64,000 nt of DNA from assembly GCA_048941015.1 (NCBI GenBank), contig JBHLNZ010000012.1:1-64000 (forward strand). The letters run 5' to 3'. Origin of the DNA: Promethearchaeota archaeon. Its GTDB lineage: Archaea > Asgardarchaeota > Lokiarchaeia > Sigyniarchaeales > SOKP01. Position 1 is the stretch's first letter, and each line of letters opens with the position of its first letter. Positions 15,109-22,918 of this stretch are shown in pieces. The notes under the pieces are model-generated. The model was not told the DNA's origin and did not search any database. It saw only the letters and a program-made list of their open reading frames with translations. The position numbers and the translations under genes are program-made.

Positions 15109-16080
15109 TTGGAAATTCAATTTTTATCTAAAGCTAAGGAAATAAAAGAGAAGAAAGAAATCGAGCCATCAAAAATCTTGTTCACGGGTCTTGACACAGC
15201 TGGTAAAACTACTATAATTTTAGCTTTACAAAGAGAATTCTCTAAAATTGCTTTATTAAAGCCAACTAGAGGGGCACAAAGAAGAATCTTTGAATTCTTA
15301 GGGAGGGAAATAGCAGAATGGGATCTTGGAGGGCAAATATCGTACCGTATTGCTTATTTGAAGAATCCAGGAAAATATTTTGACGGTACCGAAATCGCTA
15401 TATATGTAATTGATATTCAAAATAAAGCGAGAATTCCTGAAGCAATTAGTTATTTTAAAGATGTAATTATACAATTTAGGAAGCTAGAAATTGCCCCTCC
15501 AATATACGTATTTCTTCATAAATATGATCCTGCCCTTATTCGTAATGCTTTAAATGAGCTAAAAGCCCTTGAAATAGATATAAAAGAAAAATTAAAAAAT
15601 ACAGTTGATTATAAGAATATCTTTTTCTACACTACCTCTGTTTATGACCTAAATTCAATTATTAAAGCTATGTCTGAGATATTGCTCAATCTTTACCCTA
15701 AATCTGAATTAATTTCAAAAACTATCAACGAATTTGCCCAAAAGGTAGATTCAGAAGGAGTGGTATTGATTGATGATAATTCACTTATCATAGGATCCTA
15801 TTATAAAAATGAGGAATCTAAAAACCTCCTTTCGGCATCAACACCATATTTCTTGACTCTTAATGATAGTTTCCAATTTACACAAGTACTACCAGGCAGA
15901 CAGCAAGAAGAAAATAGAATGGTAGTCCAAAGATTTGGAAGAAATTTTATTTTTAAACAAATAAGTTTAAGACCGGGAAGTCCACCTTACTATATATTAA
16001 TGCTTAAGGAGGATCCAACGGTAAATCGAGAGGATTTTGATTCTTTTGCTAATTTATTGCAGGAGATATTATATAAATAA
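15109..16080 (+). CDS. Rag-like small GTPase with C-terminal roadblock-like domain
   Basis: G1 GLDTAGKTT, PTRG, WDLGGQ, Rag-type G4 HKYD, G5 TSVYD; C-terminal alpha/beta domain with VVLIDDNSLIIG. Confidence 0.85.
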   Translation: MEIQFLSKAKEIKEKKEIEPSKILFTGLDTAGKTTIILALQREFSKIALLKPTRGAQRRIFEFLGREIAEWDLGGQISYRIAYLKNPGKYFDGTEIAIYVIDIQNKARIPEAISYFKDVIIQFRKLEIAPPIYVFLHKYDPALIRNALNELKALEIDIKEKLKNTVDYKNIFFYTTSVYDLNSIIKAMSEILLNLYPKSELISKTINEFAQKVDSEGVVLIDDNSLIIGSYYKNEESKNLLSASTPYFLTLNDSFQFTQVLPGRQQEENRMVVQRFGRNFIFKQISLRPGSPPYYILMLKEDPTVNREDFDSFANLLQEILYK

Positions 16081-16236: not shown

Positions 16237-17211
16237 ATGATAATATGTAGTAATTGCGGAGCAACAAATAACGAAGCAGAAACCCATATTTGTAGAAAAT
16301 GCGGTGCATTACTTCCAATATCAAGTAAACCTCCTCGAATCAGATTAACTACCCCAAAGAAATCCACTGGGAAATCTAAACCAAAAAAAGTTATTCTTCA
16401 AGAGGAAGAAACCATTTCAAATAAATTGAATTTACAAGAAATCCCTAAAGGAGTCATTCAAACGGATAATGAACTTAAATCTGAACCATTAAATGATGCT
16501 AATTTCAAACTAGATCAAAAAGATATAGATAATGAATATGACGAGTATAAAGAAGAAAAGGAGATTTTACAAGAAATTGCACCTAAACCATTTAGAGGAT
16601 CTATTATTTCTTCTAAATCGGTAAATCAATCATCAATAAAGCAATCGAAGAAAGCAGAATTAACAACAAAAGACAGTTCAGTTGAAATTTCGCTACTTAA
16701 ACAAAAACAGTTAGAAGAGGATATGTCAAAGGTCTTAAAATTTCTATCAAATAAAATAACCGTTAAAAAATTACCATCAGAAGAGAAAAAGGAAATCAAA
16801 AAAAAGACAGAGCCTACTATATCTCCTGCGAGTTTAAGTGAAATTCTAAAAGAACTCCTTAAACTTGACTTACATATTGAAGCATCAGCAATTATAAAAA
16901 ATGATGGTACAATTCTCGCATCAGCAATTTCTTCTCGTATTTCAGATTCTTTATTTGCAACAATCGGTCAGAACCTCTTAATGATTGGAAAAGATATAAT
17001 TGAAGGGTTAACTGCTGGTAAATTAATGAATATTTCAGTAAGAGGGACTAATGGTGTATTAGATTTAGCTCCCATTGATATAGAATCAACATTAGGAAAA
17101 GATATGCTTTTAATAATTCTATCTAATCCACGCGTTAAAAGTGGGATAATCAATTTTGCTGCAAATATTGTTAGAAAACAAGTTAAAGAATATTTAGGAA
17201 TTTCAAAATAA
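16237..17211 (+). CDS. Zinc ribbon + low-complexity linker + roadblock/LAMTOR2-like domain protein
   Basis: CSNC...CRKC at N-terminus, K/E/S-rich linker, C-terminal IEASAIIKNDGTILAS...ISVRGTNG roadblock pattern. Confidence 0.8.
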   Translation: MIICSNCGATNNEAETHICRKCGALLPISSKPPRIRLTTPKKSTGKSKPKKVILQEEETISNKLNLQEIPKGVIQTDNELKSEPLNDANFKLDQKDIDNEYDEYKEEKEILQEIAPKPFRGSIISSKSVNQSSIKQSKKAELTTKDSSVEISLLKQKQLEEDMSKVLKFLSNKITVKKLPSEEKKEIKKKTEPTISPASLSEILKELLKLDLHIEASAIIKNDGTILASAISSRISDSLFATIGQNLLMIGKDIIEGLTAGKLMNISVRGTNGVLDLAPIDIESTLGKDMLLIILSNPRVKSGIINFAANIVRKQVKEYLGISK

Positions 17212-17216
17212 ATTAA

Positions 17217-18017
17217 CTATAATAACTTCTTTTGGATTACTATTTTATTTATTTCAAGTATGTTGAAATAAGGCAAATTTGTTTTTAATTCCTGTAGAAA
17301 TGAATTAAAATAATAAATTCCAACTAGAGGGATACTATTTTCACTTATACGTATTGAATTATCTTCCAAAGTCACCATTATAGGTATTAATTTGAAAGGC
17401 AATTTATGCCTTATAGAATTATAATTCCCTAAAAGTTCCCTAATTAGACAGGAAAAGATATAAATGTTCTTTTGTAATGCTAAGGCTCGCTGCAATTGCA
17501 AATATGCTGCTCTATTGATTGCACTATAAGAATCTTTACGCTTCCATTGTTTTGCATCTATAATCAGTAGATGGGAATCAAGTATACCAATAACATCAAT
17601 TTCATATCTTTTTTGTAGTGTTTTTAGTTTAAAATCAGTTTTATCGGTAAATCTAAAATTATTAATTGCTTTATAACCATTCATTATTAAAATCTGCTTA
17701 ATAAGAACTTCAAATCCATTAAAATCTAATAAATTTGAGAGTTTTTGAATATCTAAATCAAGAAATTTGAAAGATTCTATTATAAATAAGATCTTATCAA
17801 CTACAATGTAATTGATATAATTGCCTTTTCTAATAGTTATTGATTCAAACTGATCTAAAAAATCTTTTAATTCATGCTTATTAATTTGCTTTATAGAAGT
17901 GATTTCAGGGATCTCAAGCCAAATTTCAGTTAATTTTTCATCTTTTTGAGTTAGAACAGTATAAATTTCAGAAAAAAATTGATTTAAGAATGAAGATGAA
18001 AATATTTTTATCATCAA
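17217..18017 (-). CDS. PD-(D/E)xK nuclease-fold protein (Mrr/NERD-like)
   Basis: FEVLI...YEIDVIG...LIIDAKQW catalytic pattern. Confidence 0.7.
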   Translation of the reverse strand: MMIKIFSSSFLNQFFSEIYTVLTQKDEKLTEIWLEIPEITSIKQINKHELKDFLDQFESITIRKGNYINYIVVDKILFIIESFKFLDLDIQKLSNLLDFNGFEVLIKQILIMNGYKAINNFRFTDKTDFKLKTLQKRYEIDVIGILDSHLLIIDAKQWKRKDSYSAINRAAYLQLQRALALQKNIYIFSCLIRELLGNYNSIRHKLPFKLIPIMVTLEDNSIRISENSIPLVGIYYFNSFLQELKTNLPYFNILEINKIVIQKKLL

Positions 18018-18206: not shown

Positions 18207-20012
18207 ATGGATTTATTACCGAAAGTTTTCCGTACTGAAGGGGATATGGCTGACTTTGATCCTACAAAAATTTTTAATAGTATCGTCAGCGAAACTGGTA
18301 TGAATGAAGAAGATGCTAAACATATAACAGAACTAGTTGTAAGAAGAATTATTAGTTCAGGAATAAAATTTCTTTCAGGACCTCATATTAGAGAAATTGT
18401 TTGTTCTATCCTTTCTGAAAACCATTTTGAACAAGAAAGAAAGATATACACTCGAATTGGAATGCCAGTAATGGATTATGAAGCCATTTTAGAAAAAGAA
18501 TCTGAAAGCATTACTGAAATCTTAATTAATCCTGAAAAAGTACACCATATTGCTGCTAATCAATTGGCTGAAGAATACACACTTCTAAGAATTTTAAATG
18601 ACGAAGAATCTAAAGCACACTTATATGGAGATCTATATATTCATCAATTAAAGTATTTTGATTCAAGACCTTACCAATTATGTTGGGATCCTCGAATTAT
18701 ATTAAAATATGGTTTACCTCCATTAAAAAAGTGGAAATTAACAATTAAATCTGGACCAGCATTGAATTTAAATGAAGCTGTCATTCAATTATCCAATTGG
18801 TTAGGAATAATGCAAACTGAATTATGTGGTAATCAAAATCTAGATTTTTTAAATATTTTTTTATCTCCATATGCAAAAGGGCTTTCTAAAGAAGAGATAA
18901 AACAAGCAATTAAGCTTTTTATTCATCAATTAAATCATTTTGCCATGATGTCAAGTAAGAATGTATTAAAGAGCTCAATTTATTGTATTCCATCGTTATT
19001 AAGAGATATAGGTTCAATTCCCGCAGTTTCTTTTAATGGAAATTATAAAGGTGTCTACAATGATTATAGTGAAGAAGGTGTGAAAATTTTTAGAGCTTTG
19101 TCAGAAATATTTATCGAAGGAGACTATCATAAAAATAAATTTTTATACCCAACCCACAGAGTAATTTTTAATGAAGAATTATTGGAGAATTCCCTTTCTC
19201 ATTATGAAGTATTATTCAATGCAATTAGATTTAATCATATTCCGTATTTTGTAAATTCAAACTCTGATTGGTTTAAGAGAGATATTAGTAGAATTACTAA
19301 TAGCTCATATATAAATAATGGTATTTTACAAAAAGTTTCCTTAAATCTTCCAAGATATGCATATATGGCAAAAAATGAAGATATGTTTATGGAAATTTTA
19401 CGTAATAAATTAAAACTCTGTTTTGGAATTTTAAATAAGAAATATGAAATAATTAAGAAGAGATTAGAAACAAAACATTTACCTTTTTTAAGTGGTCAAA
19501 TTGAGGGAGAATCTTTATTTCCAATGGAAAAACAAGAATTATGTATTGGTTTTGTTGGATTAAATGAAACTGTGAAAAAGTTAGTAAATTTTGAATTACA
19601 TGAATCACCTGAGGCGATAAATTATGGCAAAAAAATCGTATTAACAATAAAGGAATTATGTGAAAAAGAAAGTCTGAATTCTGGTAAAGTTTATAATCTA
19701 ATTGAAGAAACTTCAGATAAAGCGTTGCAAAGATTTATTCGTTTAGATTTAATTCATTTTCCAAAAGTAGCAAGTTCAATTTTAACTGGAGGAAAAGATC
19801 AATATACTAATTCTGCTCATTTTTCAGAAAATAGTGACCTAAATCTTAAGGATCATTTAGTAAAACAAGGTGAATTTCAATCTATAATTCAAAATGGAGT
19901 ATTAGATATCATTTCAATGCGAAAATACAACTTAGAAACAAAAAATCTTAAAAATATATTAAAATTTGTTATACAAAAGAGTAAATTATCCTGTCTAAAA
20001 TTTATACCATAA
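18207..20012 (+). CDS. Class III ribonucleotide reductase (NrdD)-like protein with ATP cone, lacking catalytic elements
   Basis: ATP cone (KVFRTEGDMADFDPTKI...IREIV), HLYGDLYIH, SLNLPR, IGFVGLNE, YTNSAH; no finger-loop Cys, no C-terminal CxxC or RxxGY. Confidence 0.8.
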   Translation: MDLLPKVFRTEGDMADFDPTKIFNSIVSETGMNEEDAKHITELVVRRIISSGIKFLSGPHIREIVCSILSENHFEQERKIYTRIGMPVMDYEAILEKESESITEILINPEKVHHIAANQLAEEYTLLRILNDEESKAHLYGDLYIHQLKYFDSRPYQLCWDPRIILKYGLPPLKKWKLTIKSGPALNLNEAVIQLSNWLGIMQTELCGNQNLDFLNIFLSPYAKGLSKEEIKQAIKLFIHQLNHFAMMSSKNVLKSSIYCIPSLLRDIGSIPAVSFNGNYKGVYNDYSEEGVKIFRALSEIFIEGDYHKNKFLYPTHRVIFNEELLENSLSHYEVLFNAIRFNHIPYFVNSNSDWFKRDISRITNSSYINNGILQKVSLNLPRYAYMAKNEDMFMEILRNKLKLCFGILNKKYEIIKKRLETKHLPFLSGQIEGESLFPMEKQELCIGFVGLNETVKKLVNFELHESPEAINYGKKIVLTIKELCEKESLNSGKVYNLIEETSDKALQRFIRLDLIHFPKVASSILTGGKDQYTNSAHFSENSDLNLKDHLVKQGEFQSIIQNGVLDIISMRKYNLETKNLKNILKFVIQKSKLSCLKFIP

Positions 20013-20214
20013 TTTTTAGAGAAAGAAGAAAAGCTTAGTTAAAAAGATTTAATAATAAATTCTATCTTGATATATTAGAATATTATAATATTTTAAATCA
20101 ATTTTAATAGTATTAAAAGTTAAAAAAATCAATATCTTTTTAGTCAATAAGTAGGTTTCTTTCATTCTACTTATTTTAAGTATTTAAGATTAATCTAGGA
20201 ATTCTAGCAAAGTT

Positions 20215-21627
20215 ATGGCTGAACAAAAAATAGGTATATTAAAATCTCTAGTCTTTAGTTTGTTTGATGAAGATGGTCCTACCCCAAAAATATATTGGCC
20301 AGATGATATGGATGAATCTGCTCGTTTATTAATAGCTATGAAAACGATTAGCCTTTTAATGGGGGATGCTATATATCAAAATGGGAAAAAAAATGAAGGA
20401 ATTAATTATTTTGGAATACTTCCCTTTCCCGACTTAAAATTAAATGGATTAACCTACTTCTTTTTGATATCAGACTCAAAAGCGCGTGGCCATGCGAAAG
20501 CTGCGACGATAACTGCTTTGATTGATGAAGATAAAAAGCTCTTTTTTTATGAAAATATGAAATATTTACGAGTAATCATAGACAGAGCAGCTTCAAAAGT
20601 ACAAGAAGCAGAAAACTTTAAAGATTATGAAATGATTATGGACGATTTAAGAGAAGAACTTTTCGATTTCACAAAAGATATCAAAGATCCATTTTCTATC
20701 AAACATCAGTTAAAAATATTATTCGTTGGTTTAGATCAAGCGGGAAAGACAAGCTTTTTGCATGGCGTAAAGAAAAAATATTCTGAAATAATAAAAACGT
20801 TACCAACTCGAGGGATTGCACGAACAGAAGAGAAATTATTTGAAGAACAAAATTCTCAGATCTCAATTTGGGATTTAGGAGGCCAAAAGCAATATCGAGA
20901 TAGATTTCTTGAACAGAGTAAGGTTTATCTTTACAATGTGGATTTATTATTCTTTTTTATAGATATTCAAGATTCAGAAAGAATAAAAGATGCATTGGAA
21001 TTATTTAATAAAATTTTAAACTCATTAAAAGAAATGGATGAGTTTCCTCCGATAGTATTATGTTTAAATAAATACGATCCTGATTTGAAGGATTCAAAAA
21101 TAGTCAATAAAAGTCTTAAATATGCTAAAAAAGAAATTGAAAAGAATGATGAAGGGTTTTTTATTAAAATCTTCCAAACTTCTGTTTTTGACCATTGGTC
21201 CTTGATTTCAGCCTATTCATATGGTCTTTCGGAATTAAGTCCTAATCGAGAACTTTTTGAAAATCAATTAAAACTTTTTGCTGAAGCTACAAACTCAGAT
21301 GCTATGCTTTTACTTAACGAAAATGGAATAATATTATCAAATTTTTCTACTTCGGAAATATCAGGCAAAATGTTTGAAATCTCAGCTCCTCATTTTCAAA
21401 CTTTGTATAAAACTTTTAAGGAGTTCAAGTTATTACAAAAAGATTTTATAGTTTCTTCAGGAATTAGTGATGAGTCAAAAAAAATAATTTTCAAGAAGAT
21501 TAGTGTTGATAAATACAATCTTTATTTACTTCTTTTTGTTGAAAAATTCTTAGGAATAGAACAAATTGAGAAATATATACCTAAATTTATCAAAAATCTT
21601 AAAGAATTAATCCAGACTTATATTTAA
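20215..21627 (+). CDS. Rag/Arf-like small GTPase with N-terminal longin/uDENN-like and C-terminal roadblock-like domains
   Basis: G1 GLDQAGKTS, PTRG, WDLGGQ, NKYD, TSVFDHWSLISAYS; N-terminal LVFSLFDEDGPTPKIYWP; paralog of 8052..9557. Confidence 0.85.
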   Translation: MAEQKIGILKSLVFSLFDEDGPTPKIYWPDDMDESARLLIAMKTISLLMGDAIYQNGKKNEGINYFGILPFPDLKLNGLTYFFLISDSKARGHAKAATITALIDEDKKLFFYENMKYLRVIIDRAASKVQEAENFKDYEMIMDDLREELFDFTKDIKDPFSIKHQLKILFVGLDQAGKTSFLHGVKKKYSEIIKTLPTRGIARTEEKLFEEQNSQISIWDLGGQKQYRDRFLEQSKVYLYNVDLLFFFIDIQDSERIKDALELFNKILNSLKEMDEFPPIVLCLNKYDPDLKDSKIVNKSLKYAKKEIEKNDEGFFIKIFQTSVFDHWSLISAYSYGLSELSPNRELFENQLKLFAEATNSDAMLLLNENGIILSNFSTSEISGKMFEISAPHFQTLYKTFKEFKLLQKDFIVSSGISDESKKIIFKKISVDKYNLYLLLFVEKFLGIEQIEKYIPKFIKNLKELIQTYI

Positions 21628-21643
21628 AAAAATATAAAAAAAA

Positions 21644-22918
21644 TTAATATGAATAATCCAATTTATTTCTTCTTCTTCTTTTTGTAACCATTATGAGCGA
21701 TATGAATGCGATAATTAAAATTGCTGCTACTATGATAATAATGATAAGCCCCAAAAGATCTATAGATAAATAATCGGTATCAAGAACTGTTGCTTTAAAC
21801 TGAAAATCATAATCATAATTACCTGCTCCTAGTGCATAAACACTTGGAAAAGCAAATTCACTAACATTTAAATTAGGAGGATAAAAAAACCAAGAACCTA
21901 CATTGAAGTTAAAGTGTAAAAAGTCTATTTTATTGAAATAATCACCAGTAACAGAATACGCTGTTGGATCACAGGCTATCCAACCAATATTAGGGACATA
22001 ATATTCAACCCACGCATGGCCTAATATAGTAGGTACTTTTCCATATCCCCAGGTATAAGTATATATATCTCCTACTTTTGGTTTAAATAAATATTCATCT
22101 GATAAAAGTAAACCAGTAACCTTACGTGCAGGAATATCTTGGATTCTTAATAATGTTATCATTAAACTTGAAAATTCAGAACAGTCTCCTGATTTATTCC
22201 CGTAGGCTGCTGAAGCTCCAATTTCATCTAAAAGACTATAATTATAAGTTAAATAATTACTTACCCAATCACAGATTTTCTGTGCTTTCTCAATAGGGTT
22301 ATCTGTTGGATTCACAATACTATTAGATGCAGCAATAAGATTAGGATCAGTGCGATTATAGAAAGGATCTGAGTTGTTACAATATAATTCAAAAATTTTA
22401 TCAGAATAATCATAAATTCCTATATCTGTATCTTGAATATTGCTAAATTCTATTTCATTTAACTTTACTGAGTATTTCTGGCTCAGCTTTACACTTTGGA
22501 GGGGTGCTAAAGTCGCATTATAAGAATCATAAGTATTATTAAACTTATCATTATAACCTAAAATAAGTTCACTAGGATTATATCCCGTTATATTATCATA
22601 TAAGATAGAACTTTCCTGGTAAGGAGGGCAGTATGCTGTTAAATTGGAACTTGGTCCACGATAATTTAATCGTGGTACTTTGAAATACCATATTGCTCCA
22701 CCTGTGAGTTGTGTTGCTGAAAAGTTAATTTCAACTTGATAAGTCACACTTTTTTTAATTTCATAGTGTGAAACGCCAGAATCATTATTTAATGCTAAAG
22801 AAAAGGAATTATTGGTATCAAAATAAGTTATAAAGCTAAAAAAAAAACATGTGACCAATGGAAAGATAAATAAGCTGAGTAAGAAAGTTACTATTATTTT
22901 CTTCATTGATTTATACAA
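21644..22918 (-). CDS. Membrane-anchored transglutaminase-like (cysteine protease fold) protein
   Basis: Triad GDCSEF / HAWVE / DPT; N-terminal signal, C-terminal TM followed by KRRRR. Confidence 0.88.
   Translation of the reverse strand: MYKSMKKIIVTFLLSLFIFPLVTCFFFSFITYFDTNNSFSLALNNDSGVSHYEIKKSVTYQVEINFSATQLTGGAIWYFKVPRLNYRGPSSNLTAYCPPYQESSILYDNITGYNPSELILGYNDKFNNTYDSYNATLAPLQSVKLSQKYSVKLNEIEFSNIQDTDIGIYDYSDKIFELYCNNSDPFYNRTDPNLIAASNSIVNPTDNPIEKAQKICDWVSNYLTYNYSLLDEIGASAAYGNKSGDCSEFSSLMITLLRIQDIPARKVTGLLLSDEYLFKPKVGDIYTYTWGYGKVPTILGHAWVEYYVPNIGWIACDPTAYSVTGDYFNKIDFLHFNFNVGSWFFYPPNLNVSEFAFPSVYALGAGNYDYDFQFKATVLDTDYLSIDLLGLIIIIIVAAILIIAFISLIMVTKRRRRNKLDYSY

Follow-up and report, generated by a model that had tools for sequence, protein, structure and literature searches.

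A class III ribonucleotide reductase paralogue that has lost its radical chemistry and is maintained in one family of Asgard archaea

Why would a genome keep a ribonucleotide reductase gene that has lost the parts needed for radical chemistry? This question is raised by a 64,000-nucleotide (nt) stretch of DNA from a Promethearchaeota archaeon (contig JBHLNZ010000012.1 of assembly GCA_048941015.1, positions 1 to 64,000), hereafter the window. Positions 18207-20012 of its plus strand encode a protein of 601 amino acids (aa), P0001, which is a paralogue of the class III anaerobic ribonucleotide reductase NrdD. P0001 retains the ATP-cone and the barrel of NrdD, lacks the elements on which ribonucleotide reduction depends, and belongs to a clade of similarly truncated proteins that is under purifying selection in a single Asgard family, including genomes where no active ribonucleotide reductase (RNR) was found.

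The open reading frame (ORF) is uninterrupted, and since the guanine-cytosine (GC) content across the region is 27%, a frame of 601 aa is unlikely to be open by chance. Its product matches Pfam NRDD (PF13597) with an E value of 3e-59. The match covers profile positions 8-503 of 562 and thus leaves out the final ~60, to which the zinc (Zn) site and the glycyl-radical loop belong. The score against TIGR02487, the NrdD equivalog, is 210 bits, the equivalog cut-off being 326. An AlphaFold2 (AF2) model computed from 55 sequences (pLDDT 87, pTM 0.81) has a cone-like N-terminus, and the top Foldseek matches of this model are the NrdD structures 8p2c, 9d3x, 4coj and 1h78 (E 1e-17 to 8e-27). Both the family-level sequence match and the NrdD alpha/beta-barrel fold are present according to Pfam and Foldseek, and the predicted fold of P0001 is an ATP-cone joined to an NrdD barrel. 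P0001 terminates with the last barrel strand, in 'LSCLKFIP*' (19986-20012, plus strand), and has neither CxxC nor RxxGY. A run of five T follows the stop codon directly, within an AT-rich spacer of 202 nt and 17% GC (20013-20214); inspection of this spacer and of the downstream sequence revealed no frame continuing P0001 past its stop. A sequence-only reading of the window had described an uninterrupted 601-aa ORF with an ATP cone and NrdD barrel motifs, a KFIP end without CxxC or RxxGY and no downstream continuation, and the description is upheld on each of these counts. The DNA of the window was detected in sediment and mangrove metagenomes; no RNA data set was among the matches listed, which carries no information on expression. 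Public records label proteins of the P0001 type as "anaerobic ribonucleoside-triphosphate reductase".

Is this label justified? P0001 was compared with P0122, the canonical NrdD of the same genome (711 aa, full Pfam profile, contig C58), and a residue census was taken of 109 aligned truncated homologues (~600 aa) and 5 active canonical NrdDs. P0122 carries the finger loop 'HSQCCRKFLSG', the Zn site 'CPSCC...CPHC' and the glycyl motif 'RITGYY', whereas P0001 misses a block of ~26 aa with 'HSQCCRKF' and the entire C-terminal 'CPSCC...CPHC...RITGYY' domain. Between PYFVN (aa 346-350, nt 19242-19256) and GILQKVSLNLPR (aa 372-383, nt 19320-19355), the finger loop is replaced by 21 aa (19257-19319, plus strand) in which there is no cysteine (Cys), as the sequence-only reading had noticed. 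The deleted tip is the part that bears the thiyl-radical Cys ('QCCRKF'), and the AF2 model predicts a short helix at aa 354-365 where the finger hairpin would be expected. The Cys4 Zn site is likewise absent, with no CxxC anywhere in P0001, as is the C-terminal glycyl-radical loop (RxxGY). The finger-loop gap is found in 109/109 truncated homologues; finger loop, Zn site and glycyl loop are retained in none of them.

The loss of both radical-chemistry elements, as first proposed, is therefore confirmed, and three further losses were found. The NxN substrate flap, 'TENANQDMNPE' in the canonical enzyme, has been replaced by 'KESESITEILINPEK' (18495-18539, plus strand); its first asparagine (Asn) is present in 5/5 active NrdDs and in 0/109 truncated ones. 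The strand A region (18627-18689, plus strand) reads Y-I-H in place of HxH, leaving P0001 with neither the NxN flap nor the full HxH(D) triphosphate motif, and has 'RPYQLCWD' for the canonical 'RPFCQEWD', with loss of the second active-site Cys (kept in 3 of the 109) and of the glutamate (Glu; kept in none). Loop 2 is degenerate ('FAMMSSKNVLKSS' at 18939-18977, plus strand, for the canonical 'AARGGQVPFTS'), and the arginine of 'RGGQ' occurs in 0/109; by mapping, this loop corresponds to the region of residues R305 and Q309 in Prevotella copri NrdD. The roles assigned here to the flap, HxHD, the 577-581 loop, loop 2 and the basic residues of the cone are those reported for the P. copri enzyme (PMC11226230). 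Placement of its specificity-site residues Glu290 and Asn298 on P0001 was also attempted and was rejected as unreliable, the profile alignment being fragmentary in that part. Because the thiyl Cys, the Zn/glycyl-radical domain, the NxN flap, the second Cys/Glu and loop 2 are all lost, the comparison demonstrates that P0001 is incapable of ribonucleotide reduction and of radical chemistry. A protein in which five defining catalytic features of NrdD have failed should not carry the annotation of a ribonucleotide reductase, and the "reductase" labels in public records overstate the capacity of these Asgard genomes for synthesis of deoxyribonucleoside triphosphates (dNTPs).

Other parts of the protein have been kept. 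The ATP-cone, which spans aa ~5-84 as a beta-hairpin with four helices, and the linker RIGMP.MDYE (aa 83-92), which is invariant, extend over 18219-18482 on the plus strand and form the most conserved stretch of P0001, with 38/74 invariant columns in aa 1-92 (alignment A1, 50 truncated and 5 canonical rows). Identity between P0001 and its canonical paralogue is 76% in the cone region and 33-52% elsewhere; as dS between the two paralogues is ~1.1 in this region, the conservation stems from selection and not from gene conversion. The secondary structure in the AF2 model (strands E6-8 and E14-16, four helices) is consistent with cone topology, and several family members have a precomputed PF03477 (ATP-cone) hit. 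The basic cone residues R78/K79/R83 are present in 109/109 truncated homologues, and R9 and K21 are also conserved; in P. copri NrdD, the nucleotide-binding residues of the cone are K7, R8, Y83, R87 and R91 (PMC11226230). Within the barrel, the NLPR strand motif (19344-19355, plus strand), whose Asn aligns with that on the sixth barrel strand of solved NrdDs ('LNLPR'), is found in 109/109. The GLNE loop (19557-19568, plus strand), a binder of the substrate triphosphate in NrdD (PMC11226230), keeps its glycine (Gly) in 109/109 and its Glu in 108/109, and the second His of HxH persists in 99/109. These alignments demonstrate a cone nearly identical to that of the active enzyme, together with barrel elements (second His of HxH, GLNE and NLPR) that would hold a triphosphate.

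The truncated form is far from unique to the window. A protein search returned >100 clusters of intact proteins of 591-625 aa that are 44-70% identical to P0001; all of them share an end at '...LKF..', and their C-terminal regions contain neither a CxxC pair nor RxxGY. The ratio of nonsynonymous to synonymous substitution rates (dN/dS) of the truncated gene is 0.15-0.2 in unsaturated pairs (dS 0.28-0.40), compared with 0.08-0.12 for canonical NrdD in identical genome pairs. Purifying selection on the truncated gene is thus evident, though roughly half as strict as on the enzyme. In a rooted maximum-likelihood tree every truncated protein falls into a single clade (support 99/98), the branches of which are ~2-4 times longer than those of the active enzyme. 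This clade consists of the fast-evolving main 'type A', which includes P0001, and its sister, a slower 624-aa 'type B' (dN/dS 0.13-0.23) that still reads RPFCQEWD, and it adjoins the canonical NrdDs of the family within the branch leading from genus g4. An origin of type B by independent truncation of a canonical gene was considered and set aside, given its position as sister to type A; the approximately unbiased test rejects that origin only marginally (p = 0.04). The simplest history suggested by the sequences would be one duplication and truncation of nrdD within a single Asgard family, followed by repeated losses. The preference of the sequence-only reading for a selected non-catalytic paralogue over recent decay is well supported by losses common to all 109 homologues and by the dN/dS values; searches for the findings it had named as contrary were negative throughout, with no full-length orthologues, no dN/dS near 1 and no separate NrdD-type glycyl-radical piece.

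Which genomes keep the gene, and do they also have a working reductase? Among 151 Asgard genomes sampled phylum-wide, the truncated form is restricted to the family of the window, f1, where it occurs in ~75/135 genomes and 6/13 genera. The counts are 18/41 genomes in genus g1 (the window genome, G000, excluded), 45/54 in g2, 2/2 in g56, 1/1 in g58, 1/1 in g59 and 0 in the remaining seven genera; genus g6 has 7/10 by open-frame length (the automatic tally was 8, but the match in G172 is a 706-aa canonical NrdD). Canonical NrdD is present in 127/135 genomes of the family. In the window genome itself, an assembly of 144 contigs that is 95% complete, canonical NrdD is found on contig C58 and NrdG, which scores above cut-off and presumably serves the canonical NrdD, on contig C114. 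The separate full-length nrdD and nrdG that were to be looked for thus exist, and no nrdG lies near the gene, in line with the earlier remark that the window has none.

Five carriers differ from this pattern: canonical NrdD, NrdG (absence threshold E <= 1e-20) and the class I/II large subunit (PF02867) were not found in the type B genomes G138 (99% complete), G144 (98%), G168 (79%) and G171 (82%), all of genus g6, nor in the type A genome G162 (genus g56, 96%). Since nrdD and nrdG sit on separate contigs in the window genome, their joint absence is hard to blame on one assembly gap. G177 has NrdG and no NrdD was found in it; here NrdD was probably merely missed. These genomes demonstrate that truncated NrdD is kept without an active RNR and, because the truncated forms are selected where canonical NrdD was not found, their role cannot be solely that of partnering an active NrdD. 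The five Asgard genomes seem to be without any working RNR, and their lineages may have no de novo deoxyribonucleotide synthesis.

What, then, could the protein be kept for? With moderate confidence, we propose that P0001 is a non-catalytic, NrdD-derived sensor of ATP/dATP, with a GTPase module as the most likely receiver of its signal. According to this proposal, nrdD was duplicated inside one Asgard family and the copy lost its radical and substrate-reading elements. ATP or dATP would be bound at the cone, and a nucleotide possibly also in the former active-site pocket. By analogy with the ATP-cones of RNRs and with NrdR, adenine-nucleotide or dNTP status would be reported when nucleotides shift the position of the cone or alter the oligomeric state. 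Such a role would be independent of an active reductase, because genomes in which none was found retain the gene. The weakest step is the last one, in which the neighbouring longin/Rag-like GTPase module would receive the signal.

This step was suggested by gene order, from which the sequence-only reading had already drawn a hint of nucleotide-status input into GTPase signalling. Co-oriented with P0001 and 202 nt downstream, as the sequence-only reading had correctly recorded, lies a gene for a 470-aa Rag-like GTPase (20215-21627, plus strand; Pfam Gtr1_RagA, E 1e-24), whose N-terminal extension gives a weak Folliculin-type match (E 0.0016, below cut-off). An orthologue of this GTPase is the immediate co-oriented downstream gene in all ~20 type A loci examined, which represent six genera; a Zn-ribbon protein and a divergent gene of 265 aa usually lie upstream. 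The truncated gene and the GTPase gene remain side by side despite three genes inserted upstream (G169, G173) or a rearranged downstream block (G185). The type B gene is located elsewhere, adjoining a MazG-like ORF, and in a type B subclade the place directly upstream of the GTPase orthologue is occupied by a cone-only ORF of 166-171 aa (cone and short tail), found in G144 (L100:3122-3622, minus strand) and in G138 (contig C51). A third copy, likewise upstream of a GTPase orthologue, is at L107:8918-9433 (plus strand) on contig C33 of the window bin. Outside this contig the cone-only orthologue is confined to the type B subclade of g6, with 0/41 occurrences in the other g1 genomes, and C33 is therefore probably contamination derived from an organism resembling the type B carriers. 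The cone-only ORF is 50-58% identical to every cone type alike, and the cone-only ORFs of genus g3 do not adjoin the GTPase cluster. The swap in this slot points to the cone as the relevant part beside the GTPase. The narrower claim that P0001, or the cone-only form in one subclade, is a nucleotide-status sensor acting on the adjacent longin/Rag-like GTPase-roadblock protein is one that we put forward tentatively and consider unlikely as it stands.

A number of observations weigh against the sensor proposal. Binding of ATP/dATP by P0001 is a prediction from sequence. The match of its cone to PF03477 is weak (E 5e-4, 21 bits, under the 25.8-bit cut-off), and the second N-terminal basic residue of the cone is a threonine (VFRTEG), the same as in the active paralogue. 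Approximately 45% of family f1 genomes, complete ones among them, are without the truncated gene, which is therefore dispensable, and the absences of RNR genes rest on metagenome-assembled genomes that are 79-99% complete. As for the GTPase, all carriers belong to one family in which the ~20-kilobase neighbourhood is broadly syntenic, so that adjacency is weak evidence. Furthermore, the spacers of ~150-220 nt between the two genes argue against an operon, and the P0001 and GTPase genes probably have separate promoters. The GTPase orthologue also occurs without a cone gene upstream in G071, G113, G135 and G147. A complex prediction for the GTPase (470 aa, alignment A2) with aa 1-135 of P0001 (A1) scored 0.00, which is not evidence either way.

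Inactive paralogues pair with active subunits in other RNR classes, and P0001 might similarly be a non-catalytic regulatory subunit of canonical NrdD that tunes activity or specificity, either in a heterodimer joined by the conserved N-terminal helices or in a mixed oligomer held by cone-to-core contacts. Canonical NrdD and NrdG are indeed encoded in the window genome and in most carriers, and P0001 differs very little from the active paralogue in the cone and linker. The properties of P. copri NrdD also speak for such an arrangement, as activity is confined to one monomer of its dimer at any given time and cone-to-core contacts assemble the dATP-bound form into tetramers (PMC11226230). However, truncated forms are selected in at least five genomes where both canonical NrdD and NrdG were not found; canonical NrdD is so nearly universal in the family that its co-occurrence with the truncated form is uninformative; the specificity signal reaches the active site through loop 2, which has degenerated here; and the truncated gene never adjoins nrdD or nrdG. 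Overall we regard this explanation as unlikely, although a role as NrdD subunit is possible where NrdD is present. The sequence-only reading had offered it beside that of an ATP/dNTP sensor, and it is this part of the reading that is weakened, since truncated forms persist under purifying selection where NrdD, NrdG and class I/II RNR were not found.

It is less probable still that P0001 has become a new, non-radical enzyme using the kept triphosphate pocket, for instance for nucleotide hydrolysis or transfer. Despite the loss of radical chemistry there is little or no variation in GLNE, NLPR and the second His of HxH, and the next gene of type B is a candidate MazG-like nucleotide pyrophosphohydrolase by motif only, both of which would fit such an enzyme. 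Nevertheless, no new conserved residues of catalytic appearance have arisen, the invariant columns outside the cone are mostly structural Gly, Pro and Leu, and the surroundings of the former active site evolve fast. The possibility that the protein is still a reductase, which would receive its radical in trans from a separate glycyl-radical piece or another generator, deserves very little credence. Genomes with only the truncated form show no other recognisable RNR and hence need a source of dNTPs, and type B retains 'RPFCQEWD'. Yet the loop with the thiyl-radical Cys, which performs 3'-H abstraction, is deleted in all members, and a radical given in trans would for this reason still not restore reduction; type A is additionally without the second Cys and Glu, and searches of the RNR-less genomes for NrdG were negative. 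Nor does the window genome encode an NrdD-type C-terminal piece as a separate gene. This genome has seven Gly_radical (PFL-type) matches (contigs C136, C112, C64, C122, C45, C123 and C58), in frames of 360-988 aa; with six frames of 780-988 aa and one of 360 aa, none resembles a small stand-alone (GrcA-type) glycyl-radical protein. Finally, a decaying pseudogene, local truncation or assembly artefact can be dismissed, for although essential catalytic parts are missing and ~45% of related genomes are without the gene, this explanation is refuted by intact ORFs with conserved ends at a common structural endpoint in >100 clusters, by the low dN/dS and by the deep monophyletic clade, whose members are 44-71% identical to P0001.

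The sensor that we favour can be set beside several known systems. P0001 shares with NrdDs that have an N-terminal ATP-cone (P. copri 8P23/8P2C, S. thermophilus 9D3X and P0122) the cone followed by a ten-stranded alpha/beta barrel (PF13597) and the NLPR, GLNE and YTNS motifs, and its cone sequence is nearly that of active Asgard NrdD. In contrast to these enzymes, it has no finger-loop thiyl Cys, Zn ribbon, glycyl-radical loop, NxN flap or second Cys/Glu, its loop 2 is degenerate, and the truncated form evolves 2-4 times faster and is kept where NrdG and canonical NrdD were not found. Functionally, P0001 would most resemble ATP-cone regulators such as NrdR, a bacterial Zn-ribbon and ATP-cone repressor of nrd genes in which the Zn ribbon binds DNA and which has no RNR barrel. 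By this analogy, it would be a non-catalytic protein whose ATP-cone reads ATP/dATP and alters oligomeric state or partner binding. Unlike NrdR, P0001 lacks any domain for binding DNA; a winged helix-turn-helix (wHTH) occurs in another paralogue, P0123. Yeast Rnr4, a paralogue of the class I small subunit that functions solely in partnership with the active subunit, is comparable as a duplicate of an RNR subunit that has lost catalytic or cofactor residues and is kept by selection. P0001, however, derives from a class III large subunit, and truncated forms persist where no active RNR was found. In the eukaryotic mTORC1 pathway, enzyme-derived ligand sensors act on Rag GTPases; an enzyme-derived, putative ligand-binding protein encoded beside a longin/Rag-like GTPase, on which it may act, resembles these in concept only, as there is no homology and the putative link between P0001 and the GTPase is one of gene order.

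In the literature searched, we found no description of a pseudoenzyme derived from a glycyl-radical enzyme and none of the truncated Asgard NrdD family. A paper on Asgard GTPases (PMC10933270) mentions neither RNR nor ATP-cones, and a Tn7 preprint notes nrdD only as an attachment site. The family shows a scaffold of ATP-cone and barrel outliving catalysis. Its constant place beside a Rag-like GTPase offers a testable candidate route from metabolite status to the eukaryote-like GTPase systems of Asgard archaea; if the sensor does act on the GTPase, it would be an archaeal counterpart of the eukaryotic Rag metabolite sensors, made from a retired ribonucleotide reductase.

Several other genes of the window accompany P0001 in a conserved cluster. 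Its divergent upstream neighbour (17217-18017, minus strand; 266 aa, no Pfam family) was assigned to the cluster by neighbourhood comparison. The cluster also contains a Zn-ribbon protein (16237-17211), a second Rag-like GTPase (15109-16080; Gtr1_RagA, E 2e-25) and a transglutaminase-like protein (21644-22918, minus strand). The MazG-like candidate directly downstream of the type B gene is a 106-aa ORF (L052:10867-11187 and L053:2567-2887, both plus strand), called MazG-like from an EExxE...EExxD motif alone; it may possibly provide a link to nucleotide metabolism. With its seven Gly_radical matches, the window genome is unusually rich in glycyl-radical enzymes for an archaeon.

Additional NrdD-derived copies were encountered. 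Four full-length metagenome homologues within the canonical clade keep the Zn site and have lost catalytic residues: in P0104 the thiyl Cys is replaced by Tyr and the radical Gly by Asp; in P0109 the loop is deleted and the second Cys is replaced by Tyr; and in P0113 and P0118 the loop is deleted and the Gly is replaced by Ser. Judging from these residues, P0104, P0109 and P0113/P0118 are further, separate inactivations in this NrdD lineage. The third NrdD-derived paralogue, P0123 (659 aa; L003:1468-3444, minus strand, contig C109 of the window genome; related loci L112-L117), has a wHTH (DUF7347, E 3e-12), an ATP-cone and a degenerate NrdD barrel that ends before the radical domain, and is present in 24/25 sampled genomes of family f1. 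Frames of 753-780 aa in the Asgard families f13, f15, f19, f21, f2 and f9 match the N-terminal wHTH and cone of P0123, and frames at these sites also matched an NrdD-like query. These matches point to a fusion of RNR with a DNA-binding domain in those families, and make P0123 a candidate NrdR-like regulator in family f1. Lastly, the canonical nrdD is enlarged in G179, G211, G229, G201, G240, G182, G158, G255, G160 and G157, with frames of 1186-1228 and 1658-1687 aa in which the match to P0122 is split near aa 179-230; these NrdDs probably contain inteins, one or two each, inserted near the active-site strand.

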